Positions 1 through 63,465 are shown, counted from the first letter of the whole stretch. The stretch: DNA of 63,465 nt, filler included, from Basidioascus undulatus (GCA_000826855.1; 9 parts of 9 records of this genome joined end to end with filler, not necessarily neighbours in it), one strand, 5' to 3'. Notes: generated by a model not told the origin, from the sequence alone. Numbers and translations are program-made.

Positions 1-608
1 AAGCCCTCGACGAGCTCGAGCTGTCCGTCCCCCTCTCCCTCCCATCCCCCTTCTCCACTCCCCCACACCTCTCCACCGTCCCTCTCCCCTTCCCTTCTGA
101 CACCCCCTCCCAAAAAGGTTTCTCGCCTCCCTCCCCTACTCGGACTCCCCGACACTCCAGACCTATGCCGGCATGCTCTCCCTCTTCCTCGCCATCCCAA
201 GCCAGGGGATGAGTCAGGGGATGAGCCAAGGGATAGGGAACGAGACTCTCCTCCGCGATGCGCGGACGTACTTTGAGCGGGCGCGCGCGCTCGGAGAGGG
301 GGGAGGCGTGGCGGAGGGGTTTTTGGATCGGGTGCGTGCTGGTTCTCTCCCCTCTTTCTCTCTCCCTTTACCTTCCGTCTCTGCCTTCCCCCGCTTCCGT
401 ATTTCTTTTGTGTTTGGTGTTTGGTGTTTAGGGAGGGAGAGGAACTGATCAGCGGATGGGAGGGCAGTTGAAGAAGATGGTCGATCGGAGTGGAGAGGAT
501 GATGACGAGAAGAGCGACGAAGACAAGAGCAACGAGGACAAGTCGGACGAGGAAAAGTCGGACGAGGATGAGGACGGATACGAGGATGAGAAGATGGACG
601 AGGACTGA
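1..608 (+). CDS. 3' part of a conserved fungal protein, possibly RNA polymerase I initiation factor Rrn11-like, with an acidic tail (5' truncated)
   Basis: Spliced reading ALDELEL|FLASLPYSDSPTLQTYAGMLSLFLA...LLRDARTYFERARAL...|D/E-rich tail, TGA at 606-608; two GT-AG introns. Family assignment is from memory of similar basidiomycete proteins. Confidence 0.45.
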
Positions 609-1431
609 GCGCGGCGCGTTCCTTCCCTTCTCTCCATCGCAATCCGGACACCAAGAATGCGTGCGTCTTTCCTTCTTCCAGCCCATATGGCTAGAAGGCG
701 CACTCGACCTTCCTCCCCTTCACATCAGCGAGAGCACCGCAGCGCTACTTGCTCGTCCGAGGACCCGCCCATGCTTGCATCCTGCCGAACCGCGCACGCA
801 CGCACGCACACTGCCACGCGTCTTCGTCACGCGCTAGGCGCCGGAACGTTCCCGTCTGGTCACGCAATCAAGCAATATTCAAGGTGATGGCCGACAGGCC
901 TGACGAGCGAGGCGGGGCGGAGCGGCCGGTTATGCGGGAGAGAAGCAGGGCGGAACGGAGTGAAGGAGGCGGCGGTGGATGTCTTGTGGGTGGTGCGTCG
1001 CGTTTGTACCTGTTGGTGTACACCGCGCCCGCCTCGGAGCTTCTGGCGAGGGCGGGGCATGGACGGCGCTGCAGCTTCGGGTGCCATTTGTGGGGTATTC
1101 ATCCATGCTGCGTCGTGCCGTGCTTGTCGGTCGGTCGGTGTGTGACTGTCTAACGCCCTGCCTCGTGCGACTGCCTTGACCCGCCTGCAGCTCTCCTTTC
1201 TCCTTCCAACTGCTCCACGTAGTCGTGTAATACAGTACCCATCCCGAAAATCGCTAGGTACATCAGGCGCTTATTCCCTGGCAGGCATGCTACCAGTGGA
1301 AACCGAGACTGCAGCCCTTGGCATCCTGCAAGCAGCGCCGTGTTGCAGACAACCGACACCGGTCGCCCGAGTCTGTCTGCTGGTCTCTGGTTCACAGATT
1401 CTCGTTCGACCTTACCGGGCTTCGCGGCCTG

Positions 1432-1471
1432 ACATGCTGAGAGTTTTTAGTACATGCTGAGAGTTTTTAGT
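1432..1471. repeat. Perfect 20-bp tandem duplication (ACATGCTGAGAGTTTTTAGT x2)
   Basis: Read directly at 1432-1451 and 1452-1471. Confidence 0.9.
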
Positions 1472-3354
1472 GATAGATGATGCTCCCAGAAAGGCGATCG
1501 TCCGCAAGAACATCAACACTGCGACTTGCAGCCCCTTCCAATGATGAACTTATTCATGTCACTTGGGGCAGGTTAATCCCATTGGTGGACGATCTAATTC
1601 TTCCGTGACGACGGTCATTTTCTCACCAGGACATGTTCTGCTGTGCGGCGAGTGGGCGTGATTGCACATCAATTTCGCACATCAGGGCGAGAGCGACAGG
1701 TGATCAAAAAAGTTCGTTTCTGTGGCTATAATCCCCCGTGACCTTCAAGGATCGCGGAGCAGTGGAGCCGGTGGGGAGATGTAAAGGTCGGTCCGGGAAC
1801 TGTCAAGGCTTTCGTTAAAACTATGGCTCGTCGACATCCATGGCTGAGTGCAAGGAATACACTCAGGCTTATGACTGACGTTCGAGAGTAAGTAAGCAGG
1901 CGCCCATTTTGCATCAAAGCAGCACCATTTCCCTGAGCAGGGATGTTGGTGCCCCTATGCCCTACGTGCCAGTGCCACTACCGTCCGACTCACGCAAGGC
2001 ACTCCCAACCACAGCCGCGCCGTGCTTTGGAAATTTTTCCGTGGGAACACAACATACAGAATACCGGGCATTTCGAAACATTGCTTCAGAGGTAGAGCTG
2101 AGGGCGAAAGAGGCAAAAGGACTGCGGGGAACGTCGTCGGCGTGAGGGCGGGTGCCGGCGGGATGGGGAGTTCACAGGACTCCAACGTGGCGATAAATAC
2201 TTCGGGATCGAGTGTGACTGGAGGTGGGCCTGGTCAAAGGAGGTCAAGTGCCTCACTACTCGTTTTCCGACCATCCCGTCGCCACCAAGCAAGCAGCTGC
2301 TCTCCGCACCCACACAGTTTAACGCTGGCCACCCGCATGTCCACCTGCACGTTCTCAAATTCTACATGCCACCACTTCAGATACTTGGGACTCGAGGAGC
2401 ACTTGAAGACCTCTCCCTGCCACAGTCGGCCGCTGGACGCGAGGAGCAGATCCACACGGCGGCAACGCGCGCCTGCTCAGTTTCGAAGTCGGCAGCGAAC
2501 ATCTGGTGCAGGCCGTTCATGCAGTAAAGCCGTTCGTCATGGAGGGACCAAGTGGCCGTAAGAATCTGCATATCGTGTGGTGATGATGGGTGTGGGTGAA
2601 GTATGGAATGTGAAACGAGGCTCCCTCTTGGGCCACCCGACCTAACCTCTCAGTACACCTTTCGCGTCAACTTGGCAAAAGAACGGGTTTTACATAGCTT
2701 CTTTGGTTCGGCATTCTTGAGATATCGGTTCAGTTCCGAAAGCATAAACCAAGCTAACGACAAATCAAACACGCTACTGGAAGAGCACAGATGTAGTTCA
2801 CATCTTTGCGGGTTCTGCGGAGCGTGAAGCCGCAGCCGTTTGCTATCGATATCCATTCCATGGCTTGTTCTCACCATGTAGGTAGTTTCTCCGAATGGGA
2901 AGTCAAGGGCAGCATTCTCCGACAGCAATCCATGTTACGTACAAGGCTGCCAGGACCAGACGAAATGGTCCCAAATTGATGTGCTCGGACGCTGCGCAGT
3001 CGATAGTTTGTACGCGCACAGTCAGATGGGCTAAGAAAAAAGTCTATGACGACGATGCAGCGGTGTATGGTCCACCAAGAACAGCACATAATTGAGGGTG
3101 GGTAACAATGCAAAGAGTGCAGAGCACGAGGCGCAAGAAGGTGAAGGAAGAGATGTATGAAGGCAGAAGCCGCTTACAGTTCCAAGGGGTGTGTAAATGT
3201 CAACGATGCGCGATGAGGAAGAGGGGGTGAATGGAGAAACTGTCCAGATGCAAAGCAAAAGCCAAAGAGAAGAATAAAAAGTCGGGAATCCTGACATATA
3301 CTAAGAAAAGGCGCGAAAAACAAGAAAGCGGTAACGACAGAATGTGCGTATGCA

Positions 3355-6300
3355 TCAAGGCTTGGAAAGCTGTTCCTTGCGGAAGAAGACCTGCGATGAG
3401 GAAAAGGCTCTCGTCAGACTTGAGATGTAGTGATGCCGTTCTTCGTCACGACGCACCAAATATCCTACAACAATGATCAGCTGGCATATCAGCGCCACCC
3501 AGAACGCCCAGTACGCGATGGGCGAGTCGGAGAGGCCCTTGTCGAGGTCCCACAAGCTCGCGTCGGGGAAAACGGAGCCCGGCCCAAGACCTGGAAAGAA
3601 GTAAGCAGTGAGTCAGCACAGGCCTCCCTAGCACAGACGACGGCAAAACGGACGGTTAGGAGCGGTTGCACGAGCGACCATGACGACAACGGAACCGGTG
3701 ATCTGGGCGAGTGCGAGCGTTGCGCAAACGTGCAGTCGGGAGAGGGTCTGCGATAGCTGCGTCAGCACCTCGACGGGCATAGACAGTGAATGGGCAACAC
3801 GTACCTGCAGCAGGATCATGCCGAGACCGACACCCTGGATCGCGTCGAGCACGCCGAGCCAAAGCCAGAGAGACGTCGACAGGTAGGGACCGGCTTCTCC
3901 GCCCCACGGGACATAGAGACCAATCGAGGAGGTACCCCAAAGCATCTGTTGAAGACCATCAAGATAAGCTCAGCTCTGCACGTTGACATGCGGAAGAAGA
4001 GGCTCACCTGGCACCAGCGGGGTGCACCCAGACCGACAGCGAAGACGGGCAGGAGCCACGAGTGGACTCGGCTGAAGTACATCAGGACGTAGAGGATCGC
4101 CGCCCAAACACCGATGAAGAAGACGGCGATGAGAATGACGATCGCCCATGTTGGAATCTTGTCGTTGTTCCACAGGAAAGTCCTAGTGGGACGCGACATG
4201 GGTGAGCTGTAAGAAGACTATTCGGCGGAAAGGCAAAGACGCACCAGTTGCGGCCGTACGGCGCCGACAGCCAGTAGTTGCGGAGAACCTCGGAGATCAG
4301 GAACCTGTGAAACGAGATTCAGCTACGCGCTCGGAATTTGTTCAAATGAGACGCACCAGATGACAAGCTTGCGACGGAACAGCGTTGCCCAGAAGTTCGG
4401 GACGAACGGCGGCAGTTGCCAGTCTGATCGGCATGCAACGTCAGCCCGCGATACGCCCGCGAGCGATAGAAGACACGTACAGTAGTCCGGCAGGCCCTTG
4501 AACATCAAGAACGCGAAAATGAACGAGAGAATGCCGAGCGGCCAGACAACGATGAGCACCCAAGGCGACGGCTCGAGACCCTTCGGATCCGTGCCGTTCA
4601 GCGTGTAGCCCCCTGTGACCAAGAGCGGAAGTCAGCGGTTGCGAAGGCAGGATAAGCTGATATGCTCCCAGCTACTCACAGTACCAGAGCGCGGCGACCC
4701 AGATTTGTTGCGAGCCCTGCAATTAAAGAGGGTTATTAGCGATTGCGCAAGCGGAAGGAAGAAAGCGGAGTTTGCGGGCGACGCACCTGCACGATACATG
4801 CGCGCATGATCCAGACGCGTGTCTCCGCTCCTGCCTCCTCTCCGAAGTTGAGACCGAAGAAGAGGAAGCCGGCCGCGGAAGCGATGGCGTAGGACCAGGT
4901 CGCGACGTCGCTGATCCACTTGCGAGGACCGAGGAAGACGGAGTGCAGCGACGGGAAGCCGATGAGGAGGAATGCCACGCCGTAGAAGAGCCAGGGGGTC
5001 GCGAGGACCCAGACCGAAGGGCGGTACCGGAAAGCCAGCCACCAAACGGCCGAGGCGACCAGGAAGATGGCGCCGATGATGTAGAGCGCCACGTCTTCCT
5101 GCGTGTTGGTGCCGGACAGCAGGGTAAGCTGGAAGCTGGTCGCGCTGAGCATCTGCAAGCGTTCAAGGCGAAGTTAGCAAAGGCGATTGATACAGCGACA
5201 CGCCCAGCGGGCGAACCTGTCCGAGGGCGATGATGATGCAGTACAACGGCCAGCCGCCGATCGTGCGCTGCATGAAACGCTGAGTCGAAGACATGACCGA
5301 GTGGTCCGAGTCCCCGGCGAACGACGGCTCCTCGCCGTAGCCGCGCGGCGGAGAAGTGGCGGTGTCGGCGACAGAGAAAGGCGCTGCAAAGAAGGACGAT
5401 TCTCTATCAGGCACTGCACCCGCCAAAAGCAGATAAGGGTGGGGCTGGAAATCTGTTAGTAAGCGGTCAAGACTCACAGCCGGGGCGGAAGCCGTCCATC
5501 ATGCTCGGCGACGGCGGAGCGTAGAGCGAGTCCCGGCGGTACGAGTCGCGCCGCGACGACCGAATGCTGGGCGCGGCCATCTTCTCCTTCTTGATCTCTT
5601 GGAAGAACGCCTTCTCGCTCTTCATCAGGAACTTCTCGATACAGAGATCGCCCTTCGAGTTGCCGGGAGAGAGGTTCTGTAGGCGAGAGACGAAGCTGCG
5701 AGCGACCTCGCCATCGGCGTCCGTGAACTGGCGGCCACTCTCCCAGTCAGCGAAGGCATCCGAGCTCTGCCAGAGCGAAGTACGCACGTCGTGAAGCGCA
5801 GCGTTGAGCGGCGAGGCAGTGCGCTCCTCCATGATCGAAGAAATGGAGCTGCAAAGCAAGAAATCTGTCAGCAAGTATATCAACGCGCATCTAGCGGTGC
5901 ACGTACTCGAAAGACGATGAGCGCGAGTGCTCAGCGAAAGGCCGCGTAGGATGGGTCAGGTCGTCGACGCTCGTGCGGTGCTCCATGAACGGATCCCGGA
6001 CGTGGCCCGCTTGCTGAGCGATCGCGCGGTTTGCGCGCGAGAGGAAGTTGCCGTAGTCCTCGCCACCGTGCGAGCCTGAGCGCGGCGTAATCGCACCCGT
6101 CCCGGGCGTGTCCGGGCCGTACTCCGTGCTGGTGCGCGACATGAACGACTCGGCGTCGTCGTCCGCGCTGCGACCGATGTGAAAGCGCGGACGGCGCGCC
6201 CCGGCCGTGAGGTAGTCGCCCGTCGGCTGGCGACCGGCGGGGGCGCCAGGGCTGGGCGGCGAGTTGTGGTAGTCGTTGCTGGGCCTTGGCGAGTTCGAGT

Positions 6301-7083: not shown

Positions 7084-7447
7084 CCGCTGCTTTCACCACA
7101 TCCAGCTTCAGCACTTAGTTTTAGCTCGCACTCACACTCTACCTTCTTCTCCTTCCAGCCCACCCGCTTCGACCATACGCTCTACCCTCGCCCTCCTCGC
7201 CGCCGTCTCCCACGCCGCCTTGGAAAAAATACATCTGGATCAATGCTTCCTTATTATCCAGCTTTCTGCACCCACCTCTCTGAAGCTCTCTGTTAGTCTT
7301 CAGGTGCTCGTTTTGTATGCTCTCAGACACAACTCGCAAGGGTTTATGTGAATGTATTATACGGATTGACAGAGATATGGAGAAAATCTCGGGATCCAGC
7401 CCAACCTCTTCTCCCCCAGAGACGCGAGCTTAACGCTAAAGTCGAAT

Positions 7448-7927
7448 CTCTGCAGCGCAACGCCGGTGTCAGCAAGACGCGGCAGAAAGAGCAAAGTCGC
7501 TGTGTAAGAAGAACTCGCAGCAGTCTCCGATCTTCTTGAGCTCCTTGCTGTTGTTTTTGGTGCCCTCGTTGAGGGTGCAGAGGCCCTTGGTCTTGCCGTC
7601 CCTGGTCGAGTCGGAGATGGGGCCTTGTCCTGAAAGTACCCCGTGAGATTAGTGCACGCTACATTCGGTCGAAATTCTCCAGGGGCTTACTCCGTAGTTG
7701 TTGTTGATCTGTGGTAGGAAACGCATTCGTCTCAGTTTCGTTGAATGATACACATATTCTACAGGCTCGGAATGGACGTACCTCGGCCAGAGTACCACCG
7801 TTGACGGCCCGGACGCCGGTGAGGACGACAGTGCGCGCACACTGCGACTTACACTAAGGGTATCAAAGAGAGTTCAGTGAGCTAGAAGCATCCAGTCGGC
7901 GAGCTCAAGAGTGAATTTGCCACAAGA
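7448..7927 (-). pseudogene. Pectate lyase (PL3-like) C-terminal remnant
   Basis: Exons read SCG..|CKSQCARTVVLTGVRAVNGGTLAE|INNNYG|DKA(fs)ISDS...LCTLNEGT...KKIGDC*, matching the PL3 SCGNC...GINxNYGDxATI...C pattern; -1 frameshift near 7620 and no upstream exons. Confidence 0.65.
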
Positions 7928-8225: not shown

Positions 8226-9433
8226 TCATCCAACAAAGCTACCCCACCGCAAAATATCCTCTGCCCAAACCGCCGTATTGTCGTCGAAGCTATCCTCGTC
8301 CACCTTTAGAACGATTCTCTCCAGCTTCGGCAGTCCGTCGCGATCCAGCTGCTCGACCAGCGCATTTGACGTTCTCGTCGCTGAAGCACGTCCACGAGAG
8401 ACGGAAGGTTTCGAGCGCGGGGTGGTGAAGGGCGTGTGAGGCAAAATACGTCAAGTCGGGTTGAACGAGGTTAAGCTCGAGGAGGTACGGGGAGCGGGCC
8501 GCAATCGAGTCCCAGACGTCGTCGGGCACAGCGGCAGGCGTGAGGCTCAAGTCGAGGTGTCTTAGGTCCCGACCCGCCCGTTCGAGGAGGCGCACGACGA
8601 ACTGCCTGTCATTGCACATGCTGCTGAGATTTGAGTTCCGCGAGACGAGGCATGTCCGCGTCGCCCAGGAGCGCGAGCGCATGCTCCGGGGAGGGCTGGA
8701 TTGTCGAGGTCGAGAATGCCAAGCTCTGGGAGGCGAAGAGCAGCAGGAACCGAGCTATCGGGGACGGGCCGGTCGTGCGTGAGGCGCAAGATGCGAAGAT
8801 TGGTGAAGGAGTTTAGGATGTCAGCGACATGAGCGAAAGTGACATCCTCGCCGACGTCCGGCGCTTCGAGGACGCGCAGGGTAAAGGCCGCGGCGGAACG
8901 GAGAGCGGACCATGTGCGGCCGGATACGAAGTTGACGTCTGTTAGGGAGATTGCGCGCAGGTTGGTGAGGGAAGAGATGAAGGTGATGGTCGCCGCGCTG
9001 GCTTGCGACCGGAAATCGAGCTTCGACCGGTCAGGTCGAATTTTGATGTACAGAGAGTAACGAAACCGCCCAGTTCGGGGTTCGAAGAGCAGCGCGAGGC
9101 GATCGAAATCATCGAGGAGAGGGTCGAGAGGTAGAGCTCGCGGTAGAGAAGCGGCTCAGAGAGAACCTGCGGGTATAAGAACCCCCGTCCATTGGCGTCA
9201 GCTATACGAGTTTGTGCTCATGGGCATCTCAAGCGCACCTTCCATGCTTTGCAAACGCAAACAATACAAAGAGCAGTCCGCTTAGCGGTGTTGACGCCCT
9301 CGATAACATGCTTCCTACTCTCCGACTGCTGCCCGTGGCCATCGACACCGACAGGAAGAGCGGTTGCTAGCTCGAAAATGTACGAGAGAATGTCAGATGG
9401 AACGCGGTGTATCGAGCTTGTGTGAGGCGACAT
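8226..9433 (-). pseudogene. F-box / RNI-like leucine-rich-repeat protein, frameshifted
   Basis: N-terminal IHRVPSDILSYIFELA...VCKAW F-box-like motif, then LRR-like LRAISL/LRVLE/LRILRL/LRHLDL segments spread over changing frames (shifts near 8690, 8630, 8365). Confidence 0.6.
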
Positions 9434-10382: not shown

Positions 10383-13300
10383 ATGCTCGTTGCTGCCTTT
10401 CTAAAGCTCGGCCTTCCGGCCTTGCTCGCCGGCGGCGTCGACGCTCAACACTCGTTTCAACAGGCAGCAGGCCAGCAGCCCACATCCACTTTCGTTCAGC
10501 TTCGCAACGGATTTATCACCTCAATTAGTCCCGCGTCGACTCTCCCCCCGCCACGGGACATCGCGACTGGCAGGTGTCCACGCGAGGCAAGTCAAGCCGG
10601 AGTGCCTCCGGTCGACGGAAAGCTCCTGCTATACGCTTGCAGACAATTGCCTGTGGATTGCAACGTCTGAGGTGAGTGACTCCATCTAGTCTGAGAAATA
10701 CGGAAATAACGAGGCTAAAACCCAATTCCCTCGCAGAACATTTGGGACTAAAACTCCTGCGTGGCTGCTGCCGCGTGCTACGGTGTAAGTTAAGTTCGCT
10801 CCAAAGGAACTTACTTCCATGCTCTAAATTACTTGATGCTCCCGGACAGGTTGGGGACTTGGTCAACAGCATTAACTGCTAGCTCGGCTCGGACGTAACA
10901 TGGGAGACGAGGCTTCGTTGAACTACGCTGCGGTGGGCGTTCTTCGACATGAAAGTCCGAGGCCCAAAAGCTAAGCTGTACAAGCTACTGTTCCAGGTCT
11001 ATCAAAGCATAACCAATGGATGTGATGGGCAAGGGGCGACTGTATGGTTGCTGCCGCTTGCGAAAATCATGGGATGCCATGCTGAAAGAAGGGGTTCTTT
11101 TTTCAGCGCTGTCACTGAGCAGGCGTATTTGACCTGGTACAACTACATCGTCGGAGGAATTTATGGGTCTTCGGGTACCGCGTACGTCCTTTTATCCTCA
11201 AAGCACGCTCTCCGAGTAATTGTCTTGACGAATATGTGGCTTCATTTCTGCCGACATTGTGCGCGGCTACTGATCGACTCTGAGCAATTGGACGGGGATG
11301 GGTGAAAGCATGCCCTACTCAAAGTGAGTGGGCCTTCTTATTCTGTTGTTATGTAACGCTAACCCATACACCTATATACTAGTTTCAACGACTTCCTGCA
11401 CTACTCGTGCTCAGCTTCGTCAAGCCCGGGCGTGTCCGGCACGGACTCTACTTCCTCGACAGCTGCAGGCTCTACTTCTTCAGCTGTGTACGGGACTTCG
11501 TCAAGCTCAGACACGGCCGGTACTGTGCGTATCTCACCATGACAGCATTGAACGGCCCTGGAAGAATTCTCAATGCTCACTCTTCAACGTCTCCCGCAGT
11601 CTACGGCCGCAGCGTCCGCGATCAGTCCGGCTACTTCGGGGGCGGACTCACCGGCTTCTGCTCCAGACTGGGTCTCTTCGACTTCAGAAGGAAACACCCG
11701 AGTCTGAACGTTCTATTCCTAAAAAAAGTACCTCCATGGGCTGACACCTGAAACAACAATCTATCAGTCGGTGTCTGCCGCGCCTACCGACGACTGGACT
11801 ACGTCGACGAGATACGATTCAACGTCTACGGTATGTCGAGTTTGAACGTTCTTCCCGGAGCACGCCTATCTTACAGCCTATATAGTAGAAACAGTCCTAG
11901 TTGTCTACAAGCTCTGATGGGTTCAAGCACTCTTCCATTTGCGTCCTTGCTTAGTCAATCCACTGGCGACTTTGCCACGTCCACACCTTGTGATGTTGGC
12001 ACGACGGTATGTTCAGATGCAAATTTCCCCCATAGCGTTCTCTCACGGCATGGTACTTCAACAGTCGACGACTCCTACCGACTTAAGCGCCTCAACCTCG
12101 ACTGCTTCCTACACGGAGTCGAGTACGTCCACGCCCATCAACGAAACCTGTACCGTGCGTTGTTGGAAGGCTCGGGAGGGTTGGCCGAATGCTGACTTTG
12201 TGCGCGAGACGTCAGTCCGCGTCTATCACGGACTCCTCCGCCCCCATCACTGCATCAAATACCTCGACAGATGTAAACGACAGCTCCTCCGTATGTCGAG
12301 CAAATATCTAGCGGCACACAACGAGCTTACGTCAGTCACGATGCCGCAGTCAGTGACGGACTCAACAGCTTGGCCGATCTCAGCCTCTCCTACCGCATCT
12401 GATGACTATCCCTCAGTGCGCCAAGTCATAAACAACGTTCCCATATACCGCGCATCGCTGACAGTCTATACCGGTACCAGAGTCTGTGTCCCCCACGGAC
12501 TCAGCCACGTCCACCGCGGACTGGCCGTCTTCCACCCTTTGAAATTAGTAACTCACTGCGCATTCGGGGTCTCATATTTAGCACCCCTTTCTGCAAACTT
12601 CTACCGATGTAGCGGCACCGACTGCCACCCCTCCTCCAACTGCCACCAACTCCAACCCGGTACCTCCTCCTAGCGCTACCGCCATCACGTTTACGGACGC
12701 ATCCGATCCCTTCTGGACGAGTATCGTTCCGGTACCCGCCGCTTCGGAAGGACTCGCAGCGACCGTCTACGGACCGTCCGTCGATGGCAGCGTCCCGTGG
12801 TGGGTGGTCTTTGGTCCAGCGATCGTCGGCCCCGTTCCCTCAGCCGTAAGCTGCGTCGGCTGCACCCCGCCTGCTGCCGTCACTGCGAGCCCGTCGTCCA
12901 CTACAGCCTAAGACTCCTCATCCTCTTTCACTTCCACCACTGGCACTTGTTCTCCTATTCCTCATCCGACATGGACCCCATCGGCGGACGAGCTGGACGG
13001 TCAGATCGACAACGACGATGGCGATTACCGTAAGAGGTCCTTTGAGCCTCGCTCCAACAAAGGGTGTACGTTCCGCTATTGACATGTTACTTTACCAATG
13101 CCCTTGCCCATGCTTACCCAGTCACGGTTTTTAGCGATCAAGATCAAGATGTGCAATCGCGAGGCGAAGCCGGATGGATCTGCTGACCTTGAGCACGGGA
13201 CGTTCTTCTATCTTCCTGATGAGCCTGGGGACAGCATTGTGTTGAAGACGGAACACAATGAATAGAGGCTTGCAAGCAATGTGCAGGAACACGGCTTCCC

Positions 13301-40075: not shown

Positions 40076-42329
40076 CAAGCCCGAGGATGCATTATGAATG
40101 CGGTCAGCGAGGTAGACAAGGGTCGGCATGGCCATGTATGATTTTTCTCGTCTACTGCGCGTGCTTGATATGTGCGCCGATCTGCACGGCCTGTCAATCG
40201 AGCCTTCGCGGCGTGGGCGGTGCAAGGCTCTGAGCTTTGAAGCCTAACCTGCTCTGTCCGCCTGCCCGTGGACCCTTTTCAGCGCTGTGTCTTGCACTCT
40301 GGATTCTCTAAACTCCCCGTGCTGTTAAGGCGGGGCACATTTCAGTGACAGTAAGAGGCATCCGTGACCCGTAGCGGACGCGCGGCTGCCTTATATAACC
40401 CACGGCACTTCAACCGATAGGTGCGATTACTTTCGTCCATTCAATTGGAAGTGACATGATCTCATGAAGGCATAGTATGACCTCAGCCCCAGCAGATCTA
40501 AGAAAGCTTCGAAATCCGTCTCGGGCTTCGTGGAGTGTACGCAGAGCGTATTGACCGGCCTGGCGAACGTGCGATCAGTCTGGGTGTATGTAAGCTCACG
40601 GAAGGCTCGCCGGCGCTGAGCGAGCATGATATATCAGAGCATGGTTGTTGGATTGAAGTACGCTTGGGAAAAGGGGAGTGGGTTTGGGAGGACTGCAGGC
40701 AATGCCTGCGCATTGACGAGCCTGGGTCCCAGCTCGCAGACAGTTGCAGGGACGACGGTCTTCTCAAGGACTGTCGAGGACGTCTGTCCTTTACAGGTAC
40801 TGCTGCTATGGAGTTCTGATGTTCTTTATGGAGATCCACCTCAGTCTGCCCGGTGCTTCCATCAGACACATGCGGGACACCTTCTGTCCCAAGCACAGCG
40901 CGACTGTGCGGACTGGCAGCCTCATGCATCATGATCCATCAGCACCGCTCCATGGACTGAATGGAGCGTCCAGAGTCGATATCGTCCCTTTGCTGAACCA
41001 AGCGGTCTCAACAAGGTCTCAAGCTTGATCAAAGCAGTTTTGTTGTTGTTTATTGTCTGTTGTCGACAAGCCGCTCGAAATTTTAATTGTCCGTCCTAAT
41101 TCCCCGAAGCCTCGTTCTTGGGAGCTGTCAGTCGCAGCCGCTGCGGAAGGCATTAGGCCGAATCGGTGCAGATCACCTCATCCACATATTTATTGCTTGT
41201 TGTTGGTTGTCACTCTGCAATTTGTTGTGCTTTCATTTTCGTTGGCGAGGAAGTGGAGAACGATGGCGACACGACGAAGCGGAAAACGCTTGCTTGTGCT
41301 TCGCCTGCTTGGCGGTGTACTTACTGTACGGGGCGGTGGGAGCACACGAGAGACTGAGTGGGCTGTCAGTGGAGTGAGCGGACGAGGGCGTCGAAGCCAA
41401 CTTTCAGTCGAATTCGTTCTGCGTTCGTCCTCCAAGCTGTGTGCGGCCTCCCCGGCCGCCCGACAGTAAAGGTGCGTCTGCGTTGAAAATACTGGTACGA
41501 GTTCTCTTTATTTCTGTACAGACGTCACTCTGAAAAGAAGAGTGCCGACAACAAACACGCAGGCAAGACGAAAAATGACTGGAAGAGGAGCATCTTCGAT
41601 CATTTGTCTCCTCGCGACGCGAAAGACGAGATGTGACGTCGATCGTGTCTGCCTGCCCCGCGCTTTCGTTCGCTCGGCTGTGTTGCGCGTTCACATGGTG
41701 CGCTTGGCGTTTTGAGGGCGTCGACAATTCTTCAAATGGGCGGTGTTGAGGTGCAAAGTGTTTGTTTGGTCGTGTGGATGCTCAGTGCAAAAGGCTGAAA
41801 GAAGAACGTGGGCGAGGAACCGAGTACCTAGTTGGTATTCCGCGAGGGCACGGATGAGCAAAAAAGCACGGCAACGTTGAGGGGTGCTGCGGACGGTAGA
41901 ATAGTATGCAAATACAGTAGGTTACAGCGCGCTATCGCTTTTGAGCCCCGCGCGTCCCGCGCGTCCCGCCCAAACTCGTCGGCGGTGTGAATCGAATCGA
42001 AACGGGACGGGATCTTTGACACTTCGCCCCTGCCTGCGTTTACCCCTTGCTCGCCTCCTCTCGCTCCTCACCCTCGTCCTCCTCGCCCAGTCTCCTTCTT
42101 TGTTCCTTGCTCCCGCCATCCCGCCCTAGTCTCCTCCCCGTTCGTTCCTTCGTCCTCCCCATCCGACCCGGCGAGCACAGCAGTAGCAGCGGCGGACCGA
42201 CGCTCGCACAATAAGCCGCCGCCCGCCCATCCATCGCGCGCGCGCCCCGCCCTCCCTCCACCAACACCACACACAAACCCCTCGCCCTGCCACTTTTCGG
42301 CTCTGTCACAGCTGGACTACTCGGACGTC

Positions 42330-49000: not shown

Positions 49001-49303
49001 ACATGTTACATAGATCAACTGTCCTTTTGGCCGAGAGATCAAATGCCTGGAACACTTGACCATTCGACATTGAACCACTGTCTGAAACGTGTACGTAGAT
49101 GTGCGAGAGCAGCCTGTTTGCCCTGTTGTTGAAAGCTTGACAGTGTGGACACGCCGAAAGTCCGTTTGGCTAGCTGATCGAGTCCTGGGCAGCCTGTGAT
49201 GACGACCACGGCTAACAACATCGCCAGCCTAGTGTGCGCGCCCCCATGACAATTAAGAAAGACCAAACGGATATTGGTTGCCGTCTCAGGCAGGCAAAAT
49301 GAA

Positions 49304-49376
49304 AGCCCCACGCGGGGGTCGAACCCGCAGCCTTGAGATTAAGAGTCTCACGCTCTACCGATTGAGCTAGCGAGGC
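49304..49376 (-). tRNA. tRNA-Lys(CTT), intronless
   Basis: Reverse complement GCCTCGCTAGCTCAATCGGTAGAGCGTGAGACTCTTAATCTCAAGGCTGCGGGTTCGACCCCCGCGTGGGGCT, 73-nt cloverleaf. Confidence 0.96.
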
Positions 49377-49385
49377 TTGATGCTC

Positions 49386-51950: not shown

Positions 51951-52617
51951 TTATCTCGCGTCGCTATTCCGGCCGTTTTTGTCCCCCCAATTTGTTCCGC
52001 ATTTGTCCTGTATCGTGCTTCCCTCGGTCAATTTCTGATTTTTCTTCCACCGCGGTACTGCTGTGCTATGTGGCAGCCACTTGTCCGACGCGCTTGTTCT
52101 ACGTCTACTAGCAGCTGCGCTGGTCCTAACCGAGAACCATGAGATGATATAAAGACAGCGTCCATGCCTTCGAGCGAGAAACATCCAAAGTCTTCTCTGC
52201 ATCACAACGCCGCAGAATCGCCTAGGCAACGCAGTATGTTAGTCAGCGAACATCGGGGCAACACAGACTGTTGTCCCCGAAGTAGCAACGGCAGGGTCGG
52301 GGGCGTGCTGGCGTCTCTCGGTGGTGCTGATATGTTGCACCCCACATTGTCCTACCTCCAACAAGTCTGTGCCATCGACTGTGTGCACCGGCTTGCTTGA
52401 CAGACACAGACATCAATCCTCCGACCTCGCGTGCATGCAGCTGAGCGGCCGCACGCATGCGAACCAGAGACTCAACACAATTCCTTTTAGATTGAATCTG
52501 ATGTTGAGTATTATATGCGAAAGTATTATCAAGTGCGAAAGAGAGTAGTGCACTGATGATAATCTTATGTCAGAGGCATTAACAGACTCAAAGAAAATCT
52601 TCACGACACATGCATAT

Positions 52618-52707
52618 CTCTCCTTAGCTCAGTTGGAAGAGCGCGAGACTGTAATGTTAAAACTCCAGTTCATCTTGAGGTCCCTGGTTCGATCCCGGGA
52701 GGGGAGA
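52618..52707 (+). tRNA. tRNA-Tyr(GTA) with 17-nt intron (52655-52671)
   Basis: CTCTCCTTAGCTCAGTTGGAAGAGCGCGAGACTGTAA[intron]ATCTTGAGGTCCCTGGTTCGATCCCGGGAGGGGAGA, followed by a T7 Pol III terminator. Confidence 0.96.
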
Positions 52708-52999
52708 TTTTTTTAAACATCCTCCCAGGCTGGAGCTCCTTCCGAACCACGCATTGGACGGCTGAGCAATGTCATCCGCCGTCTTTCTGCCATAAATAGT
52801 CCGCTTGTTTGGACTTGCAAATACCGGTCTGATCATACAGCTGACTTCCGTTGCGAAGTTGCAAGTTGGTTTCACTGTCCCGCGCTCGGTGTACACGTCG
52901 TAGGCCAGTGCCAGGTCGCCTGGGCTGTCGACTGGGCTGCCTTGATGTCTTCAAGGTGAGCCCGTCCGCATTCCTCAGTTGATATGTCGCGTTGCAGAT

Positions 53000-56438: not shown

Positions 56439-56538
56439 NNNNNNNNNNNNNNNNNNNNNNNNNNNNNNNNNNNNNNNNNNNNTTAATTAATTAANNNNNN
56501 NNNNNNNNNNNNNNNNNNNNNNNNNNNNNNNNNNNNNN
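56439..56538. other. Artificial contig linker
   Basis: N44-TTAATTAATTAA-N44. Confidence 0.98.
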
Positions 56539-56619
56539 GTCGCTGGGCGGAATCGAACTGCCGTCTTCACGGGTCAAAGTAACCACAACGTGATGTACTA
56601 ACCACTATACTACAGCGAC
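56539..56619 (-). tRNA. tRNA-His(GTG) with ~10-nt intron, at contig edge
   Basis: Reverse complement GTCGCTGTAGTATAGTGGTTAGTACATCACGTTGTGG[TTACTTTGAC]CCGTGAAGACGGCAGTTCGATTCCGCCCAGCGAC; perfect acceptor and anticodon stems. Confidence 0.9.
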
Positions 56620-57165
56620 GATACTTTTTCGTTCTCGTTTATCTCTCAGGCCCAATCGGCTATCAGCTCAGTGCGGCGGGGATCAAGGAGGTGGTTGGAA
56701 AGGGGGGCATGAAACGACTAAACGGTAGCGAATGGACCCGCAACTTGTTCAATTCCGTACTCCCGTCTCTTGTAGCTCGAGTGGCGCAGAGCTGTTCGCT
56801 ACTTACTATACTTTGTCTCGTTGGCCTGTTCTGGCTTGCCTTCGTACTTTCACCACTCTACCGTCGTCTGGCTGAACCACAACCACTGACCCTTTCGCGC
56901 TCGATCATATTCACCTCAATAAAATCAAAAGACAGCTTCCCCTCCTTCCCACGCTCCCCGGCGACATAGCCTTCATCCGGCACCCATACCCTGGTGCTTC
57001 TCCCTCTTCGGCGCGCCCGCCCGTGGCTGTACTCCCAGTCCATCTCTCGGACACCCCTCTCCCATAGTGTGTCCTATCCCAAAAATCTTGGCGACGGCTA
57101 ACCCTCCTCATCAACAGCGTTCGCCTGGCTCACTGGCGTTGCCGCTCATCGCGTGATTCTCGACC

Positions 57166-58613
57166 ATGGCGAGCAACTTCTGGCTCTCATCACATTGGTT
57201 CGTCGGTAGACTCCGGCACATCATGGAATGAAGTCTGAATCTTTTTTCGCCGCTTCTTCGCCCACAGCAACTACTGGCTCGTTGACCGGGACACGCTACG
57301 ACGCGCGCGGGACCTCGACCGCAAGTACGCGACGGACCGACAGCTCGCGTGCATCGGCATCTGGTGCGCGAACGGTGAGTCGTCATCGATGTTATCAACC
57401 CGTTTACAGGAACATGCTTACCCCTCTGCGATGGTTCGTATTCAGTGCTGCACAAGCTTACGCGCCGGCTGCAGCTCCGCCAGGTCGTCTCCTCAACAGC
57501 GACGACGTTCCTGCGCCGATTCTACCTCAAGAACAGCTATTGCGAGACGGACCCGGCGCTCGTCATCGCTGGCTGCGTCTACCTCGCCGCCAAGATCGAG
57601 GAGTGCCCCGTGCACGTCAAGAGCGTCGTGACCGAGGCGAGGGCGGTCTTTCAAGGTTCGCGCTCTCCCCACACATCCTCACGGCGGCCTTCGCGCTGAC
57701 GCGATCGAGGACTTCAGAGTTCCACATCAAGCTCCCGTCCGACAACTCGACGCTGGCGGAGATGGAATTTTACCTCCTCGAGGACCTCGACTTCCACCTT
57801 GTCGTCTTCCACCCGTACCGCACGCTTGTCTCGCTCTGTGGCAAGGAGACGAACGCGCCACAAGAAGACTTGGGCACGGCGAAGGGAGGAGGAGATGCGG
57901 AGCTGGGCGAAGCAGCGGAAGGGCAGTATTTGGATATCGATGATCAGGGATTGCAGCTTGCCTGGTACGCCCGTCACCCGCGGTTGCCCAGTTCCGCTTA
58001 CTAACGCGGCCTGATCGACTCTCCGTGGAGGTTCGTCATCAACGACACCTACCGCTCCGACCTTCCCCTCCTCCATCCTCCGCATCTCATCGCCGTCGCG
58101 GCTCTCTACCTCGCGCTCGTCCTGTACCCGCCCGCCCGCGCCAAGCTGGCGCCCGCCCTGTCAGCCGCCAACCCCCCCACACCCGCCGCCGCCCCACCGG
58201 CAAAGCACCACGCGACGCGTTCGACCCCCGTGCCAACACCGACGCCTGCCGATGCGACGCTCGACTTCCTCGCTAAGCTCAATGTGAACCTCGCGATCGT
58301 GGCCGAGATCGCGGCGGAGATGGTCGCGCTGTACGAAGTCTGGGACGCGTTCGAGAACGCTCCGGAGTTCCTACGCGCTGGGAAGCCGCCGTCTGCGCCT
58401 CCGGCTAAGACGGTCGATCTCGAGGTCGCGGAATTGCTGGTCAGGATGAGGACGGAGAGAGAACGGGACCTCGCGCATCCGCCAGCCGGGTCCGTCTCCG
58501 GAGCAGGAGAAGCGGCGGGGGAGATCCTGGCTGCCGAACCTCCGCCCACGCCGGTAAATAAGGGGAAGAAGGCGGTTGATAGGAGAGTGAGGAGCGTCGC
58601 CGGGAGGGGTTGA
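57166..58613 (+). CDS. SSN8: Cyclin C (Mediator CDK8-module cyclin, Ssn8/Srb11)
   Basis: MASNFWLSSH, LRQVVSSTATTFLRRFYLKNSYCETDP...CVYLAAKIEECPVH, LAEMEFYLLEDLDFHLVVFHPYRTL, AW|FVINDTYRSDLPLLHPPHLIAVAALYL. Confidence 0.95.
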
Positions 58614-58993
58614 TATTCATTGCGTTTCCGCTGCGCCTTTGTATGGTCTTTGCGACAGAGCCGAGTGATCTTCTCCGAATTAAGAAACTCAGGATATGGT
58701 GCGCTCGTTTACGTCTGCTATCAGTCAAAATTTCGCGCTGTGTGCATCGATCTGAAGTGCCACCCAACTTGATTGACATGTCGCTTGACGGGACGCGCCT
58801 GGCAGCCGTAGTTAATCAGGCGCGTCGCGTTCGCGCGTCTTGCCTTTCGACGTTCGTCTTCCTCCTTCGCACGCACCCGCAATCGTTTCGTTCTCCAGCC
58901 TGCAGCTCGGTATGGCAGCATTCAACGCTATGGGCACTGGCCCTGGAGCGGCGGTTCTCAACAACGCTGTCATTCTTGTGAGTCGAGACTAGG

Positions 58994-60048
58994 ATGTCTA
59001 CAGATCGACTGTGTGACGCTCGCTGACCTTCGTCCGACGCGTCTTCGCAGGATCTCATTTTCGAGAACCTTGCCATGGACGACCTGTGCCTGCTCAGCGG
59101 GACGTCGCGTCAGCTTCGGAGAGCCATCCACAGGCACTTGCGCTGCTCGTACCGGGCACTGCTGGTGTGATACGCGCCGCACTCGCCGGACCACTTCCTC
59201 GTGCTCCTCCTCGCAATGCAGAGCTACATCAGCAGCGAGTCAGCACTGTTGTTCATAGTCCCCAGTGCATTCGCTGCGAGCGACCTGGACATCTACGTCC
59301 CCTGCAGCATGCTCGAGATCGTCCAGAAGCATCTGGTCAAGACGGAGGGTACGAGAAGGGCGAGGACTGGGTTATGGAGCACTATCTCGCTGACCCCTCG
59401 CAGCAGGGCAGCATCAATCGCGGCATGCATCTGACCAAGGACGGGTGGAAGATCGACATTCTCGAGTCGAAAACCATGCTGAATTCGCCCAAAATTTCAG
59501 CTACGTTTACGGCTTGGGCAGTCCGGCAGTCTCAAGAGGTGGTTTCGGCAACTGACCAGCGGCATTGTGGGGAACAGGACACAAACAAGCCCATCACTGA
59601 ATTCATACCGCCTTCCCTACCCTTGTCAGCACAGATAGCTGTGCTGATCATGGGATCACGCTGTGCCCAGACAGCCCCCTCCTGCATGATGAACATGCTC
59701 GCAGCATGTGCGATCTGCTTCTACCCGCAGTACACACTTGTCAACCAATGGAACATACGCTCAGCTTCCATCCCTGCCGGCATCAACAGCAGCGAGAAGA
59801 ACTGGCGCTGCCTCGAGTACAACGCACGCGGGTTCCAGCTCCAGTGGGAGGACACCATTGTCCAGCTGACGATCACTGCGTACCGCGAGAGGAGGTACCC
59901 GATGCTCAGTGTGCCTCTCATTGACCTCGATGAGTGGGACTGGCTTCTCGAGCTGGAGGACATGATGAGGGATCTGAAGTTCAGTATTGGGCACTCCGGG
60001 AACCGTTTCTGCACTATCGTCATGCGTGAGTATGCGGGCCAATCATAG
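58994..60048 (+). pseudogene. F-box-like N-terminus plus polymerase-beta-like nucleotidyltransferase-type domain, disrupted
   Basis: DLIFENLAMDDLCLLSGTSRQLR, ISSESALLF...SDLDIYV, KIDILES, PITEF, MMN...FYPQYTL, EYNARGF; stop at 59168 and frameshift near 59349. Confidence 0.6.
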
Positions 60049-60967: not shown

Positions 60968-61630
60968 TCACACCTCCGGCATCCCCGAGTACCCCGACGG
61001 GCGGAGCCCGTAAGCGTGCGAGTGTCCTACCACCGGCGGGGGCGTGTATCCCGCGCTCGGCGGGGGCGGGGACTGCGGGTAGGCTGGGGCGGGCGTGGGC
61101 GGGAAGGAGGCGGGGTTGGAGGGGTCGTCTGAGGAGGATAGCACATAGTCATCTCAGTTTCAGCTCAAAGGAAGGATGAGGATAGGAGCACGCACAAGGT
61201 ATGAGGCTCCCTCCTCCGTACTGCTGCTGGTACCCGAGCGACACATGCGTGCCCGCCGAGGGGAGCGAGCTCTCGTACTTCTCGCTCATGAACGGCCTGA
61301 CCTCCGGGGAAGCGGTGGGGGGAGGGACGTGCTCGAAGAGGGGACCGGAGGCGGATTCGTTGTAGGGCTCGTCGACGGCGCATGTGAGCTTGGGCGACGC
61401 GCGGCGCTTCTTGCGGAATAGAAGGATGGCGAGAAGGGCGAGGAGGAGGAGGAGGATGAGGCTGTGGATTGGAAGGGGGTTCAGTCGGTGGGTTATGGGG
61501 GGGAGGGGAAGGAGAGGATGTACCCGCCGACACTGCTGTCTCCTACGTGAAAGCGTCAGCGCGGTGTCCCTCGCAGGTAATGGGTTGAACTCACCCCCCA
61601 GCAATAGCTCCCACCGCCACCTTCTTTCCT
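60968..61630 (-). pseudogene. 3' half (TM helix and cytoplasmic tail) of a basidiomycete type I membrane protein
   Basis: KKVAVGAIAG|GDSSVG|LILLLLLALLAILLFRKKRR...|YDPSNPASFP...GYSGMPEV*; no signal peptide or start upstream on this strand. Confidence 0.65.
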
Positions 61631-61933
61631 TCTCCCTTCTGCTCCTCTAAAGCAAGGGCATAGCTGGCTTTATTAACTCACCCTGTCCACCTCAGAATCA
61701 TTTATTTCCGACTTCCAGGACGCCCCCACACACCACGACCGGGAGACATGCGCGCAGGCGGTGCAGTCCAGGCACATAAGCGAGACACTGAATGCGCGAC
61801 TGCGTCCCCTTCCGCCCCGCCAGGGCCTTCCCAGTCCGCTCCAGCCTGCCACTCCTCTGTTCTCTATTCCCCATTCGCTTACCTCTAACCATCCTCTCCC
61901 TCTTTTCTTCCCACCATCCTGAGAACTCCAGCG

Positions 61934-62817
61934 ATGCTCCTCCTCGCCCCCCTCCTCCTCCTCCTCCTCGGCCTCTCCGCCCCCGTCGCGGGCCAGAGCT
62001 ACACCACCTCCGCCGTCTGCGATCCGGGGCACGAGTGGATGACCAATTCGAAGGGGTGCGTTTGCAGCCTGCGAGATGGAGCAAGCTTGGGGATGAGGGA
62101 GACGAGGGAGGCTGAAAGGTGGAGTGGGGGGAAACAGGCAGCGCCCGTGCTTGATGGCTGCTTATGCGCAGGGGTCGTGTACGGGGCAAGGTGCGCTGCT
62201 CTCTGACTCTCAGGTGACCGATGCAGGCGAGACTGACTTGTGAACGCGGGGCGGGGGAAGGATGGACCATCCCAGCTCTCCAGGTGCGTTGCAGCACGAC
62301 CTTCAACGGAGTGAACGGGGTACTGACGTTGGGGATGATCCGGGTAGCCCGACCACCTCTACACGGGCCCGTTTGTTTCCCAGGCAAATGTGTACGCAAC
62401 CCCCCCCCCCTTTTCCGTCTCCGCCTGCCACGTTACGGAACACTGACTGCGTCCTGTTTCCGGAGCGCAGCTGCCAGTGCAACTCGATCACGTCCGTCCT
62501 TTCCCCATCCTATCACCCGTCCTCCCTAAGATCCTTAACGATTTCGACCCATTTAATTTCAGATACTCCCTCGCCTCCGCCTGCGGAGCGTGCCAAGGCC
62601 GCGTGTGGAGTTCCTTCGGCGAGTGGACGACCAACTGCACTGCGTCTCAGATCCGGGACGGGGTGTGCGTACGCTGTTTCCCCTTCCTCCACCTCTCACC
62701 TCTCTCCCTCCCCCTCCGGTTCCTTCCTTTCCGTTCTCACCCTAGGTCATCCGGAGCAGGTACAGCCCCCAAGTCCCTCCGCAGACAGTCTTCCCGAAGT
62801 GGGTTTACCTCCCTATC
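61934..62817 (+). pseudogene. 5' half (signal peptide and Cys-rich ectodomain) of a basidiomycete type I membrane protein
   Basis: MLLLAPLLLLLLGLSAPVAG...CDPGHEWMTNSKG|QRPCLMAAYAQGSC|...WTIPAL|...CQCNSIT|YSLASACGACQGRVWSSFGEWTTNC...FPKWVYLP, then unrelated sequence with no TM segment. Confidence 0.7.
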
Positions 62818-63465
62818 GGGGCGCGGGGTCTGAAGATCGTTGCGAGAAGCGAGGTGCAAGGAGAATGCACTGGGGCGAGTCGCCGATGCGCAATCTTTTT
62901 TGAGTCGCCAGGATTCCAGACTGGCAGCTGAGTGAAGAAGGTAGGCAGCCTGCTCGTCGTGTATGCATGGAAGCGGGGCGAGCAGTTGGGACGCGCTGGT
63001 GCCTCCTCAACGTCCGAGCCCAGTTCAAAGGAACCTGAGCCGGCACGCAAACGCTGCTGAGCCGTGGAGAGGTCACTAAATAACCTCTTCAAAGGAGAGG
63101 ACGAGCGAGCGACACAAGATGTGTTTTACAGAACAGAATAGACCCTGTACAGAAATCAACAAGCGCACTACCCTCTCCCCCTTCCTTCCTCACCGTCCTT
63201 CCCACGTCCTTTCCCAGTCCTCTACCCTCGCTTCACCAGTTGATTTGACCCATCTCGGCCTCCGCCACCTTCCACGCACCACCCGCAACCCATCAAGCCA
63301 AGCCCACCACCCGCCCTCGACCAAAGTCTCAGCCATGGAACCCCCTCCCCGTGCCCGCCGGCGGCGGCAAGCCCGGCAGCGCTCCGCCGGTAGGCGGGGG
63401 GAGGGGCGGGCGTCCCGGGAACGCCTGTCCAGCGGGGGGTGGGAGGCCCGCACCCGGCGGGGGTG

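Follow-up and report, generated by a model that had tools for sequence, protein, structure and literature searches.

What kind of process leaves pieces of ordinary genes, broken and with their introns in place, on one contig after another of a fungal genome? The question is raised by a 63,465-nucleotide stretch of the Basidioascus undulatus assembly (the window), which consists of nine contigs of ~7 kb each (C713–C720 and C722, with C717–C720 assigned from their order of length) linked by N44-TTAATTAATTAA-N44 spacers; the whole assembly, from a yeast-like basidiomycete, is intron-rich, with 2,992 contigs and 32,128,072 bases (32 Mb). An earlier note ascribed the wreckage to one genome-wide process, either fractionation of a subgenome or Helitron/Pack-type capture. 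The broken, intron-keeping pieces are real, but they are mostly the result of ordinary decay of spare copies and of stray DNA in chromosome breaks, not of one event: the relics differ in age, and neither a homeologous block nor a helicase or end of Helitron type came to light with them. It is likely that gene birth-and-death and break-repair insertion of the NUMT/NUPAV type, acting side by side, explain the wreckage. The anatomy of the pieces, the spread of their ages, the selection that preceded decay and the scatter of element and mitochondrial sequence were all observed.

The gene wrecks that had been described are present, and the PL3, GH51, Hsp20 and SDR/RPS5 pieces match relatives or families. 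All five named pieces retain introns, so the intron loss that marks processed (retro) pseudogenes is absent and the events took place at the level of DNA, as had been proposed. The Hsp20 piece, thought to be the exception, has an intron 3′ of its stop codon, as do its paralogs. Both the SDR/RPS5 and the GH51 junctions had been placed inside introns; this holds for SDR/RPS5, where the intron is a hybrid, but the left GH51 junction lies at a splice donor. About four of the ten junctions inspected are intronic, no surprise in genes so rich in introns. Three-frame translation bears out the frameshifted relics in further contigs, with in-frame stops or frame switches in C717, C718, C720 and C722, and wrecks also recur on other contigs of the genome. 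A comparison of 140 kb of long contigs with the examined loci alone gave one element piece and two paralog matches, and is no fair measure of wreck density on long against short contigs. DNA searches of contigs against the assembly covered C714–C716 and C722; that of C715 was swamped by tRNA matches (40 of 75 candidates scored), and Hsp20 was therefore searched by family. The state of each wreck before the event is read from paralogs. Identity to the nearest relative ranges widely: 97% for GH51, 88% for the RPS5 exon, 74–77% for PL3 and Hsp20 and ~70% for a GID4 pseudogene; for the SDR and membrane genes, genome searches found no nearest relative.

The RPS5, PL3 and Hsp20 relics are old paralogs that were dismantled in place. 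The pectate lyase PL3 relic (7513..7859, minus strand) is a 3′ remnant that retains introns and lacks its 5′ part; a PL3 gene on C1379 that matches PF03211 in its exons shares 74% identity with it, and two exons of the relic have pN/pS values of 0.14 and 0.37. The Hsp20 pseudogene (16676..17020, plus strand; PF00011 match at 16676-16944) has lost its middle and carries a frameshift; its own start and stop are still there, as is the 3′ UTR intron (16946-17020). It shares 61% of its amino acids with the nearest intact paralogs, and of the genome's seven Hsp20 loci three are broken. C1916 holds a full-length GID4 pseudogene, also with its introns.

The RPS5 relic (21811..22184, minus strand, on C716) matches the gene on C2933, the one intact copy in the genome, where the earlier note had expected such a copy to exist. 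What survives is the end of intron 1, exon 2, the greater part of intron 2 and, beyond a deletion, the last codons, with an extra intron (21823-21919) ahead of the last three codons. Over 51 codons it has 10 synonymous changes in 37.5 sites and 5 non-synonymous changes in 115.5 sites (pN/pS 0.16, Fisher p 2.8e-4). This low ratio, together with those of the PL3 exons, indicates that both genes were functional after they split from their relatives. Two RPS5 pieces are 88% and 98% identical to C2933. The introns of the relic differ from those of the intact copy. The extra intron is found neither there nor in any of the 74 fungal loci that have the motif, out of 80 metagenome loci (6 lack the motif) that are by their N-terminal sequences mostly ascomycete- and agaric-like and appear to include no close relatives; to account for it, an intron must have been gained or lost or must have come from a foreign source. 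Among the RPS5 neighbours in these 80 loci there is no match to C716 at E 1e-6, and only scattered family matches to C2933, which says little about synteny at such distances. As read from the sequence, the introns of the relic are in this genome's own style.

Through the hybrid intron, the relic is joined to the 5′ stub of a short-chain dehydrogenase (22269..22420, minus strand), which has a weak match to PF00106 positions 2-21 (E 0.035) and no close parent in the DNA search of the assembly. Contigs from sequencing runs were compared with this one contig, C716. A contig of DNA run X1 (21926-22972, depth 49.5, flanks 47.7 and 38.7) and one of DNA run X2 (21926-22980, depth 15, flanks 16.6 and 17.1) span, without a mismatch, the junctions between SDR and RPS5 and within RPS5. 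This supplies the read-spanning check that had been proposed, for SDR/RPS5 only; both runs are flagged as possible assembly sources, so they exclude a mis-join and are not independent biology. An unspliced contig of run X3, classed as RNA from its GT..AG joints, covers the fusion (21943-22379) at depth 9 with 0 mismatches. Next to the fusion, the 5′ stub of an F-box-like gene (22591..22942, plus strand; 73% to C1190) ends at a piece of a virus-like element; its relative on C1190 sits ~11 kb from it within one and the same X1 contig.

At the end of the window, the C-terminal half of a membrane gene (about 61000-61690, minus strand), with a pre-TM motif, TM and tail, retains introns and has no 5′ part. 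The N-terminal half, with a signal peptide and Cys-rich exons, lies at 61934..62750 on the plus strand. Judged from sequence and translation, the two halves may be one gene split by an inversion of ~1.1 kb in place. Long inverted repeats are absent from the presumed breakpoints; the DNA search for a homologue gave low-complexity matches only, and atlas and protein searches were blank. On the same contig, three-frame translation of a fungal family gene (58913..60045, plus strand) reveals an in-frame stop, and the DNA search of C722 against the assembly found no paralog.

The GH51 piece has a different history. It is an internal piece of an arabinofuranosidase gene (13782..14065, plus strand; 96% to C1479) that matches solved alpha-L-arabinofuranosidases (E 4e-10). 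Its host is a multi-exon secreted-protein gene of family Y with premature stops (10383..13781, plus strand), which can be aligned as far as 13781 with paralogs on C1778 and C2438. Counting a putative continuation on C2673, linked by a 60-bp overlap, the piece measures 384 bp and differs from C1479 at 12 positions, 7 of 198 exonic and 5 of 186 intronic; pN/pS is 0.83 in the longest exon. This equal divergence of exons and introns, with the high ratio, marks a young DNA-level piece that was dead on arrival. The ‘parent’ on C1479 is broken too, by an in-frame stop and a frame switch. At the edges of the piece there is no terminal repeat, terminal inverted repeat or target duplication, and its junction has a short donor-like overlap. 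In the paralog on C2438, an APH-like piece (44% amino acid identity to the virus-like element) sits inside an intron; the C1778 paralog has an empty site. The same contig of the window starts with the cut-off 5′ stub of a multi-copy secreted protein, family X (7084..7217, plus strand; 77% to C2438 and C2673), whose opening 83-84 bp overlap with the beginnings of C1379 and C1316. It also carries a frameshifted F-box/LRR-like gene (8250..9400, minus strand; 91% identical to C61, indels apart, and 72% to C809).

The element piece beside the F-box-like stub is 156 bp of a helicase gene (22943..23098, plus strand; 94% to C2820:4802-4956). C2820 is a 13-kb intronless contig of 58–59% GC that encodes a PolB, a D5-like helicase, a piece of RNA polymerase beta′ and kinases, and it appears to represent an undescribed, multi-copy, virus-like element. 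The PolB fits PF00136 (E 2e-29) much more closely than PF03175 (E 0.004, below cut-off), the polymerase piece matches PF00623 and the helicase has PHROG primase/helicase matches: PolB, D5-like primase-helicase and RNA polymerase subunit together are a trait of Nucleocytoviricota. A 283-aa ORF has its nearest relatives in Nucleocytoviricota clusters, in one of which 12% of the members contain Pox_I3; this similarity to a putative ssDNA-binding protein is a lead only, and the single-sequence fold has a pLDDT of 39.6. The eight main ORFs, of which the last was annotated from similarity to APH ORFs without a profile scan, include no integrase, transposase or intron-bearing host gene; no capping enzyme or toxin is seen in the 13 kb. 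No major capsid protein or packaging ATPase was found in C2820 or in the 96 of 177 listed flanking ORFs that were scanned. C2820 has no terminal repeat, its ends may not equal the element's ends, and the element is probably longer. At one 156-bp stretch its depth is 74 in X1 (~2x) and 371–444 in X2 (~22–26x), and the version at depth 371 is present in the RNA run X3; the element may be extrachromosomal. In a quick tree of 54 rows that included no named viral reference, the polymerase falls in its own clade of ~700-aa PolBs, apart from two named cellular PolBs, and relatives of the element lie on 18–29-kb contigs. IMG/VR gave no match with a single protein and only distant PolBs, with a weak E-value, with a profile; the plasmid collection gave only bacterial rpoC.

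Pieces of this element are scattered through the chromosomes: 60 matches on 52 contigs, including the longest (C1), measure 38–1,244 bp at 67–100% identity and cover 58% of the 13 kb. The figure of 60 overstates the number of independent small insertions, since several matches end alike at gene boundaries within longer element-like stretches, and ten short matches of 98–100% identity sit mostly at the ends of contigs, where they may be assembly tips. On C1554 and C2111, distant element pieces are stitched together, with an 8-bp overlap on C1554. None of the 17 pieces viewed has shared termini or a consistent target duplication. Mitochondrial COX1 has left similar pieces (NUMTs) on three nuclear contigs (82, 90 and 93% identity). 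Both sets are random internal pieces of many ages without fixed ends, as expected of NUMTs and NUPAVs. The 50-bp tip at 42280..42329 (plus strand), 100% identical to C2989, is either a recent NUMT or a tip artefact.

Gene families evolve by birth and death. Here, DNA-level duplicates would arise both in families (Hsp20, PL3, F-box-like, secreted) and in normally single-copy genes (RPS5, GID4); they would work for long and then decay in situ through deletions, inversion, frameshifts and stops. The broken Hsp20 loci and the decaying tandem and dispersed copies of PL3, F-box-like and secreted families resemble the classical pattern, from which the involvement of RPS5 and GID4 departs. The SDR/RPS5 fusion would result from a deletion that joined the stubs of presumably neighbouring genes. 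In parallel, the genome would repair chromosome breaks, presumably by end joining, and patch some with pieces of free DNA of about 40–1,200 bp without fixed ends. The sources of the traced pieces would mostly be abundant DNA (the virus-like element, mitochondrial) and in a few cases chromosomal genes, as for GH51; pieces of that type would keep introns because they are copied from such genes.

NUPAVs and NUMTs are described as pieces of extrachromosomal DNA, of many ages and varied stages of decay, scattered in chromosomes (PMC4431711), and NUMTs as products of break repair (PMC2567098). The scattered, variously decayed pieces found here are alike, but the donor has 58–59% GC, a PF00136-type PolB and a D5-like helicase, unlike an A/T-rich yeast VLE, and intron-bearing host gene pieces are captured as well. 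In grasses, double-strand-break repair with filler DNA moves intron-keeping genes or fragments to non-collinear sites where they are later pseudogenised (PMC3445842). That movement goes with transposon insertion, whereas no transposon was found beside the GH51 piece.

The element itself could drive the wreckage, by integrating, recombining and carrying host DNA, possibly between species, in which case the RPS5 relic would be a foreign gene. There is indeed an element piece 760 bp away from the relic and SDR stub; on both C716 and C125 such pieces adjoin one F-box-like family; longer element-like stretches occur in a degraded state; and the relic's intron pattern is unlike that of the intact gene. 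This reading is nevertheless unlikely: the main C2820 ORFs lack the genes for such a role, no element sequence is near four of the five named wrecks, mitochondrial pieces were captured too, and the relic's introns match the style of this genome. Assembly or library chimeras are a very improbable source of the junctions. The assembly is fragmented and built from short reads, one tip ends in mitochondrial sequence, and the end of C716 (28166..28202) matches an exon/intron boundary of another gene (C1990); run contigs end at 28162 and 28165 and RNA shows another upstream exon, so that these last ~37 bp are a probable mis-extension. Against this stand the single-copy depth at which two DNA runs and one RNA-type run bridge SDR/RPS5, the many substitutions that separate the pieces from their relatives, which shows that they are not copies of parent reads, and the 61–63 kb breakpoints, which lack long inverted repeats.

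Helitrons are defined by 5′-TC, 3′-CTRR with a hairpin and Rep/Hel (PMC5148889). Capture and fusion by Helitrons or Pack-type transposons would fit the chimeras that unite pieces of several genes in one orientation, with introns kept and junctions in introns (SDR-RPS5; family Y-GH51-family X), and so resemble Helitron cargo, and the presence of the SDR-RPS5 contig in RNA. It is nonetheless improbable. A transposase search, which covered Helitron only, gave 0 matches to PF14214 (Helitron_like_N) with 1 candidate scored, a weak result since the control was blank. Helitron-like 3′ ends, from a scan outside which Helitron2-type ends fall, number 5 in the window (0.080/kb), none beside a relic, against 11 in the 140 kb of long contigs (0.079/kb) and 3–11 in 10 shuffles. 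There are no Pack-MULE/CACTA-like terminal repeats or duplication at GH51 and no long inverted repeats in the window except the spacers; each chimera is single-copy by depth or search, and selection before decay is unlike fragments captured dead. That a subgenome of old hybrid or duplicate origin has been almost fully fractionated seems similarly improbable. Copies of normally single-copy genes (RPS5, GID4) did decay after selection, and several paralog pairs lie near 70–75% identity. However, C716 and the 32-kb C2933 share no neighbouring genes (one pair, on short contigs), and paralogs of the C2933 neighbours are on C2702, C1223 and C2308. Mitochondrial S7 and two genes that we take to be SSADH-like and cyclin-C-like have no second copy, the duplicates range from 97% to ~70% rather than being of one age, the intact RPS5 is single, and the GH51 and element pieces are far younger.

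Taken alone, the wreckage represents heavy gene turnover in a fungal genome, which is ordinary, and annotation of such assemblies would count the chimeras and stubs as genes. Literature searches, with subscription journals outside their coverage, found no matching description of such fungal gene wreckage or of such an element. Two papers of 2026 (PMC13348850, PMC13533422) report no dsDNA or giant virus from Dikarya, with none in Ascomycota or Basidiomycota, and raise the question of why Dikarya escape infection; the element is a novel lead because of these reports. There is about an even chance that it is a dsDNA element of roughly 20–30 kb that replicates and is transcribed, whose genes for both tasks are of giant-virus type (PolB, D5-like helicase, RNA polymerase beta′ piece, putative ssDNA-binding protein) and which also bears kinase/APH cargo. 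On that reading it would belong to an unnamed family of at least two dozen 50%-identity clusters, would have left dozens of chromosomal scars of all ages after a long association with its host, may promote breaks and fusions, and would count, in Dikarya, as a dsDNA virus or as a derivative of one without a capsid. Like pGKL-type VLEs and Nucleocytoviricota, it is compact, intronless, multi-copy DNA that encodes a DNA polymerase, an RNA polymerase subunit and a helicase of its own and leaves nuclear relics. It differs from the former, which have protein-primed PolB, A/T-rich DNA and terminal inverted repeats, none of which is seen in C2820. It differs from the latter in the 18–29-kb contigs of its relatives, far below giant-virus size, and in the lack of a visible capsid gene in 13 kb. 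An expressed multi-copy element with virus-type polymerases, a strain with DNA and RNA runs, and a dated insertion trail make the question of Dikarya viruses testable in culture, and the scars offer a natural assay for the rate at which free DNA is patched into fungal chromosomes. The pieces on C716 and C125 might conceivably be two halves of a single element insertion into an F-box-like gene, since their element coordinates abut (4797/4802), but their identities differ (94% against 85%) and the gene has ~390 bp that are unaccounted for.

The broken gene pieces described in the earlier note are real: PL3, GH51, Hsp20, the SDR+RPS5 fusion and the two halves at 61-63 kb were all recovered, and the anatomy, ages and scatter of the pieces can be read directly from the contigs. 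The wreckage represents a variant of processes already known, part of it explained by a virus-like element. One relic is an SDR stub fused to two RPS5 pieces; the intact RPS5 expected elsewhere exists as a single copy on contig C2933. Across 51 codons, the relic and this gene are separated by 10 synonymous changes against 5 non-synonymous ones (pN/pS 0.16, p 2.8e-4), and the introns of the relic are hardly alignable with those of the intact copy. At window 7513-7859 only the 3' part of a PL3 paralog remains, with 74% identity to a PF03211 gene on C1379 and exon pN/pS values of 0.14 and 0.37. The low ratios indicate that the RPS5 and PL3 relics were long-working genes, cut down later. SDR and RPS5 were presumably once adjacent. 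An extra RPS5 intron (21823-21919), three codons upstream of the stop, is absent from C2933 and, of 80 fungal loci examined, from every one of the 74 that have the motif; either it was gained or lost in one of two old paralogs, or it came from a foreign source. C1379 itself carries a tandem PL3 pair (L068:428-1324 and 2816-3740), the first copy of which has lost its 3' half.

Decay takes several forms. Hsp20 (16676-16944) lacks its middle and retains its own start, stop and 3' intron; three of seven Hsp20 loci are broken. A GID4/Vid24 (PF09783) pseudogene on C1916 (L005, 1080-1850) is full-length, keeps its introns and has ~70% identity to the GID4/Vid24 gene of the window, and translation alone reveals stops or frame switches in four further window contigs. 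The 61-63 kb region holds two halves, one N-terminal and the other with TM and tail, that point away from one another, an arrangement that, judged from sequence, would fit an inversion; a search for a homologue showing one single gene returned none. An apparently intact gene lies at 57100-58610, presumably cyclin-C-like. On the 44-kb contig C1778 (L067:1690-2200), a PF16363/PF01370 gene, which we take to be UDP-glucuronate decarboxylase-like, is broken mid-domain at a head-on junction with a truncated gene of secreted-protein family Y.

The GH51 piece (13782-14065) is of a different kind. It has 96% identity to C1479, matches solved arabinofuranosidases and continues for 100 bases on C2673, joined via a 60-bp overlap. 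The resulting internal piece of 384 bp has the 5' part of one secreted-protein gene on one side and the last exon of a second such gene on the other. Differences from C1479 are alike in exons (7/198) and introns (5/186), marking a young, never-functional piece. The parent (C1479:13318-15700, L011) is itself broken, with an in-frame stop and a frame switch. In place of the one genome-wide process proposed there are two classes: old, formerly functional paralogs (RPS5, PL3) and a young dead piece (GH51).

At 22943-23098 an F-box-like gene is cut off by a piece with 94% identity to C2820. This virus-like element (13,076 bp, 58-59% GC) is intronless, and its ORFs run long without interruption: two orphans (509 and 283 aa), a kinase, a D5-like helicase, an RNA polymerase beta' piece, a PolB of 718 aa and two APH-like ORFs; among the products is a putative ssDNA-binding protein. 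No capsid gene was found in the element sequence examined. Depth at the 22943-23098 stretch is 74 against ~44 in one DNA run (X1) and 371-444 against ~16 in the other (X2); element depth differs ~tenfold between these runs and is 371 over the same stretch in an RNA run. The element would presumably exist in a free, extrachromosomal state. PolB relatives share 30-34% identity, many on 18-29-kb contigs; the close ones looked up carry labels no further than generic family-B and no NCBI record. A profile search returned a few dozen full-length members among the top matches listed, and in a quick tree 27 of 54 rows form one weakly supported clade separate from named cellular PolBs. The clusters nearest to the 283-aa ORF belong to Nucleocytoviricota, which is a lead only. 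The element falls outside the yeast VLEs as defined by their criteria. According to PMC13348850, no dsDNA virus has been found in Ascomycota or Basidiomycota; PMC13533422 asks why giant viruses do not infect Dikarya, and PMC12297863 adds metagenomic assignments only. No such element is described in the literature searched, which lay outside subscription journals and supplements. We give even chances that it proves to be a dsDNA virus or an episome that replicates in a dikaryan yeast.

Element matches number at least 60 on at least 52 other contigs (38-1,244 bp, 67-100% identity), a lower bound, with 55 of 66 candidates scored. Artefacts may explain ten of the matches, which are short, have 98-100% identity and for the most part lie at contig tips; some of the rest are parts of longer degraded variant copies, in which the kinase/APH gene order differs from C2820. 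Such longer stretches, at 80-89% identity, lie on C1665, C1096, C1554, C125 and C2428 (L188, L237, L238, L217, L212, L189). C1554 and C2111 stitch together element pieces from distant positions, and on C2438 an element-related APH-like piece occupies an intron that is empty in the C1778 paralog. In a single search with COX1, pieces turned up on three nuclear contigs (82, 90 and 93% identity). Mitochondrial pieces in nuclear contigs are those at L232, L233, L234, L039 and window 42280-42329, the last at a contig tip; the mitochondrial contigs themselves (C2988-C2990, C2992) have 49-57% GC and abundant short repeats. The scatter of element and COX1 pieces has the NUMT/NUPAV pattern (PMC4431711), and PMC3445842 describes how intron-keeping gene fragments can arise when breaks are repaired with filler DNA.

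The mechanism we favour, with reasonable confidence, is that duplicates would arise at the DNA level, function and then be dismantled in place, while free DNA, derived in most cases from abundant sources and at times from chromosomal genes, would be patched into breaks; the repair pathway behind the patching we infer. Shuffling or transfer driven by the element itself is unlikely. Fractionation of a duplicated or hybrid subgenome, one of the two causes first proposed, is distinctly improbable: RPS5 is the sole sequence that C716, the contig of the SDR/RPS5 relic, shares with the 32-kb C2933, and paralogs of the C2933 neighbour genes are dispersed over three other contigs. Transposon capture of the Helitron/Pack type, the other, is equally improbable. 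About four of ten junctions inspected fall within introns. Hairpin-CTRR ends, a Helitron feature according to PMC5148889, occur at background density (0.080/kb in the window vs 0.079/kb in long contigs; 3-11 per shuffle), with none beside relics in the window scan; Helitron_like_N had no match in a genome search whose control was also blank, and the GH51 piece showed no terminal repeat or duplication when these were looked for.

That the junctions are artefacts is very improbable, and contig ends do give some cause for it. The window comprises nine 6.9-7.0 kb contigs with artificial N spacers, from an assembly of 2,992 contigs totalling 32.1 Mb. Judged from intron style and gene content, the source would be a basidiomycete yeast of the Microbotryomycetes type. 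Three of five tRNA genes (14162-14243, 45465-45537, 49303-49377, 52617-52708, 56537-56620) lie at contig ends and thereby account for some breaks. Reads were checked on one contig, C716, with run contigs of two DNA runs and a third run, identified as RNA by spliced GT..AG joints. Run contigs terminate ~37 bp short of the C716 end, and the tip (28166-28202) is a probable mis-extension whose match lies on C1990, at an exon/intron boundary in a spliceosomal RRM gene; contig tips are therefore untrustworthy. The SDR/RPS5 region is bridged with 0 mismatches by DNA-run contigs (21926-22972 and 21926-22980), both runs possibly being the assembly's source, at a depth matching the flanks and intact RPS5 in both. 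In the RNA run an unspliced 437-nt contig covers the chimera at depth 9, with adjoining stretches uncovered; intact RPS5 has depth 1,221. On the same contig, an apparently intact aldehyde dehydrogenase gene (24100-26620), presumably SSADH-like, is spliced in the RNA run.
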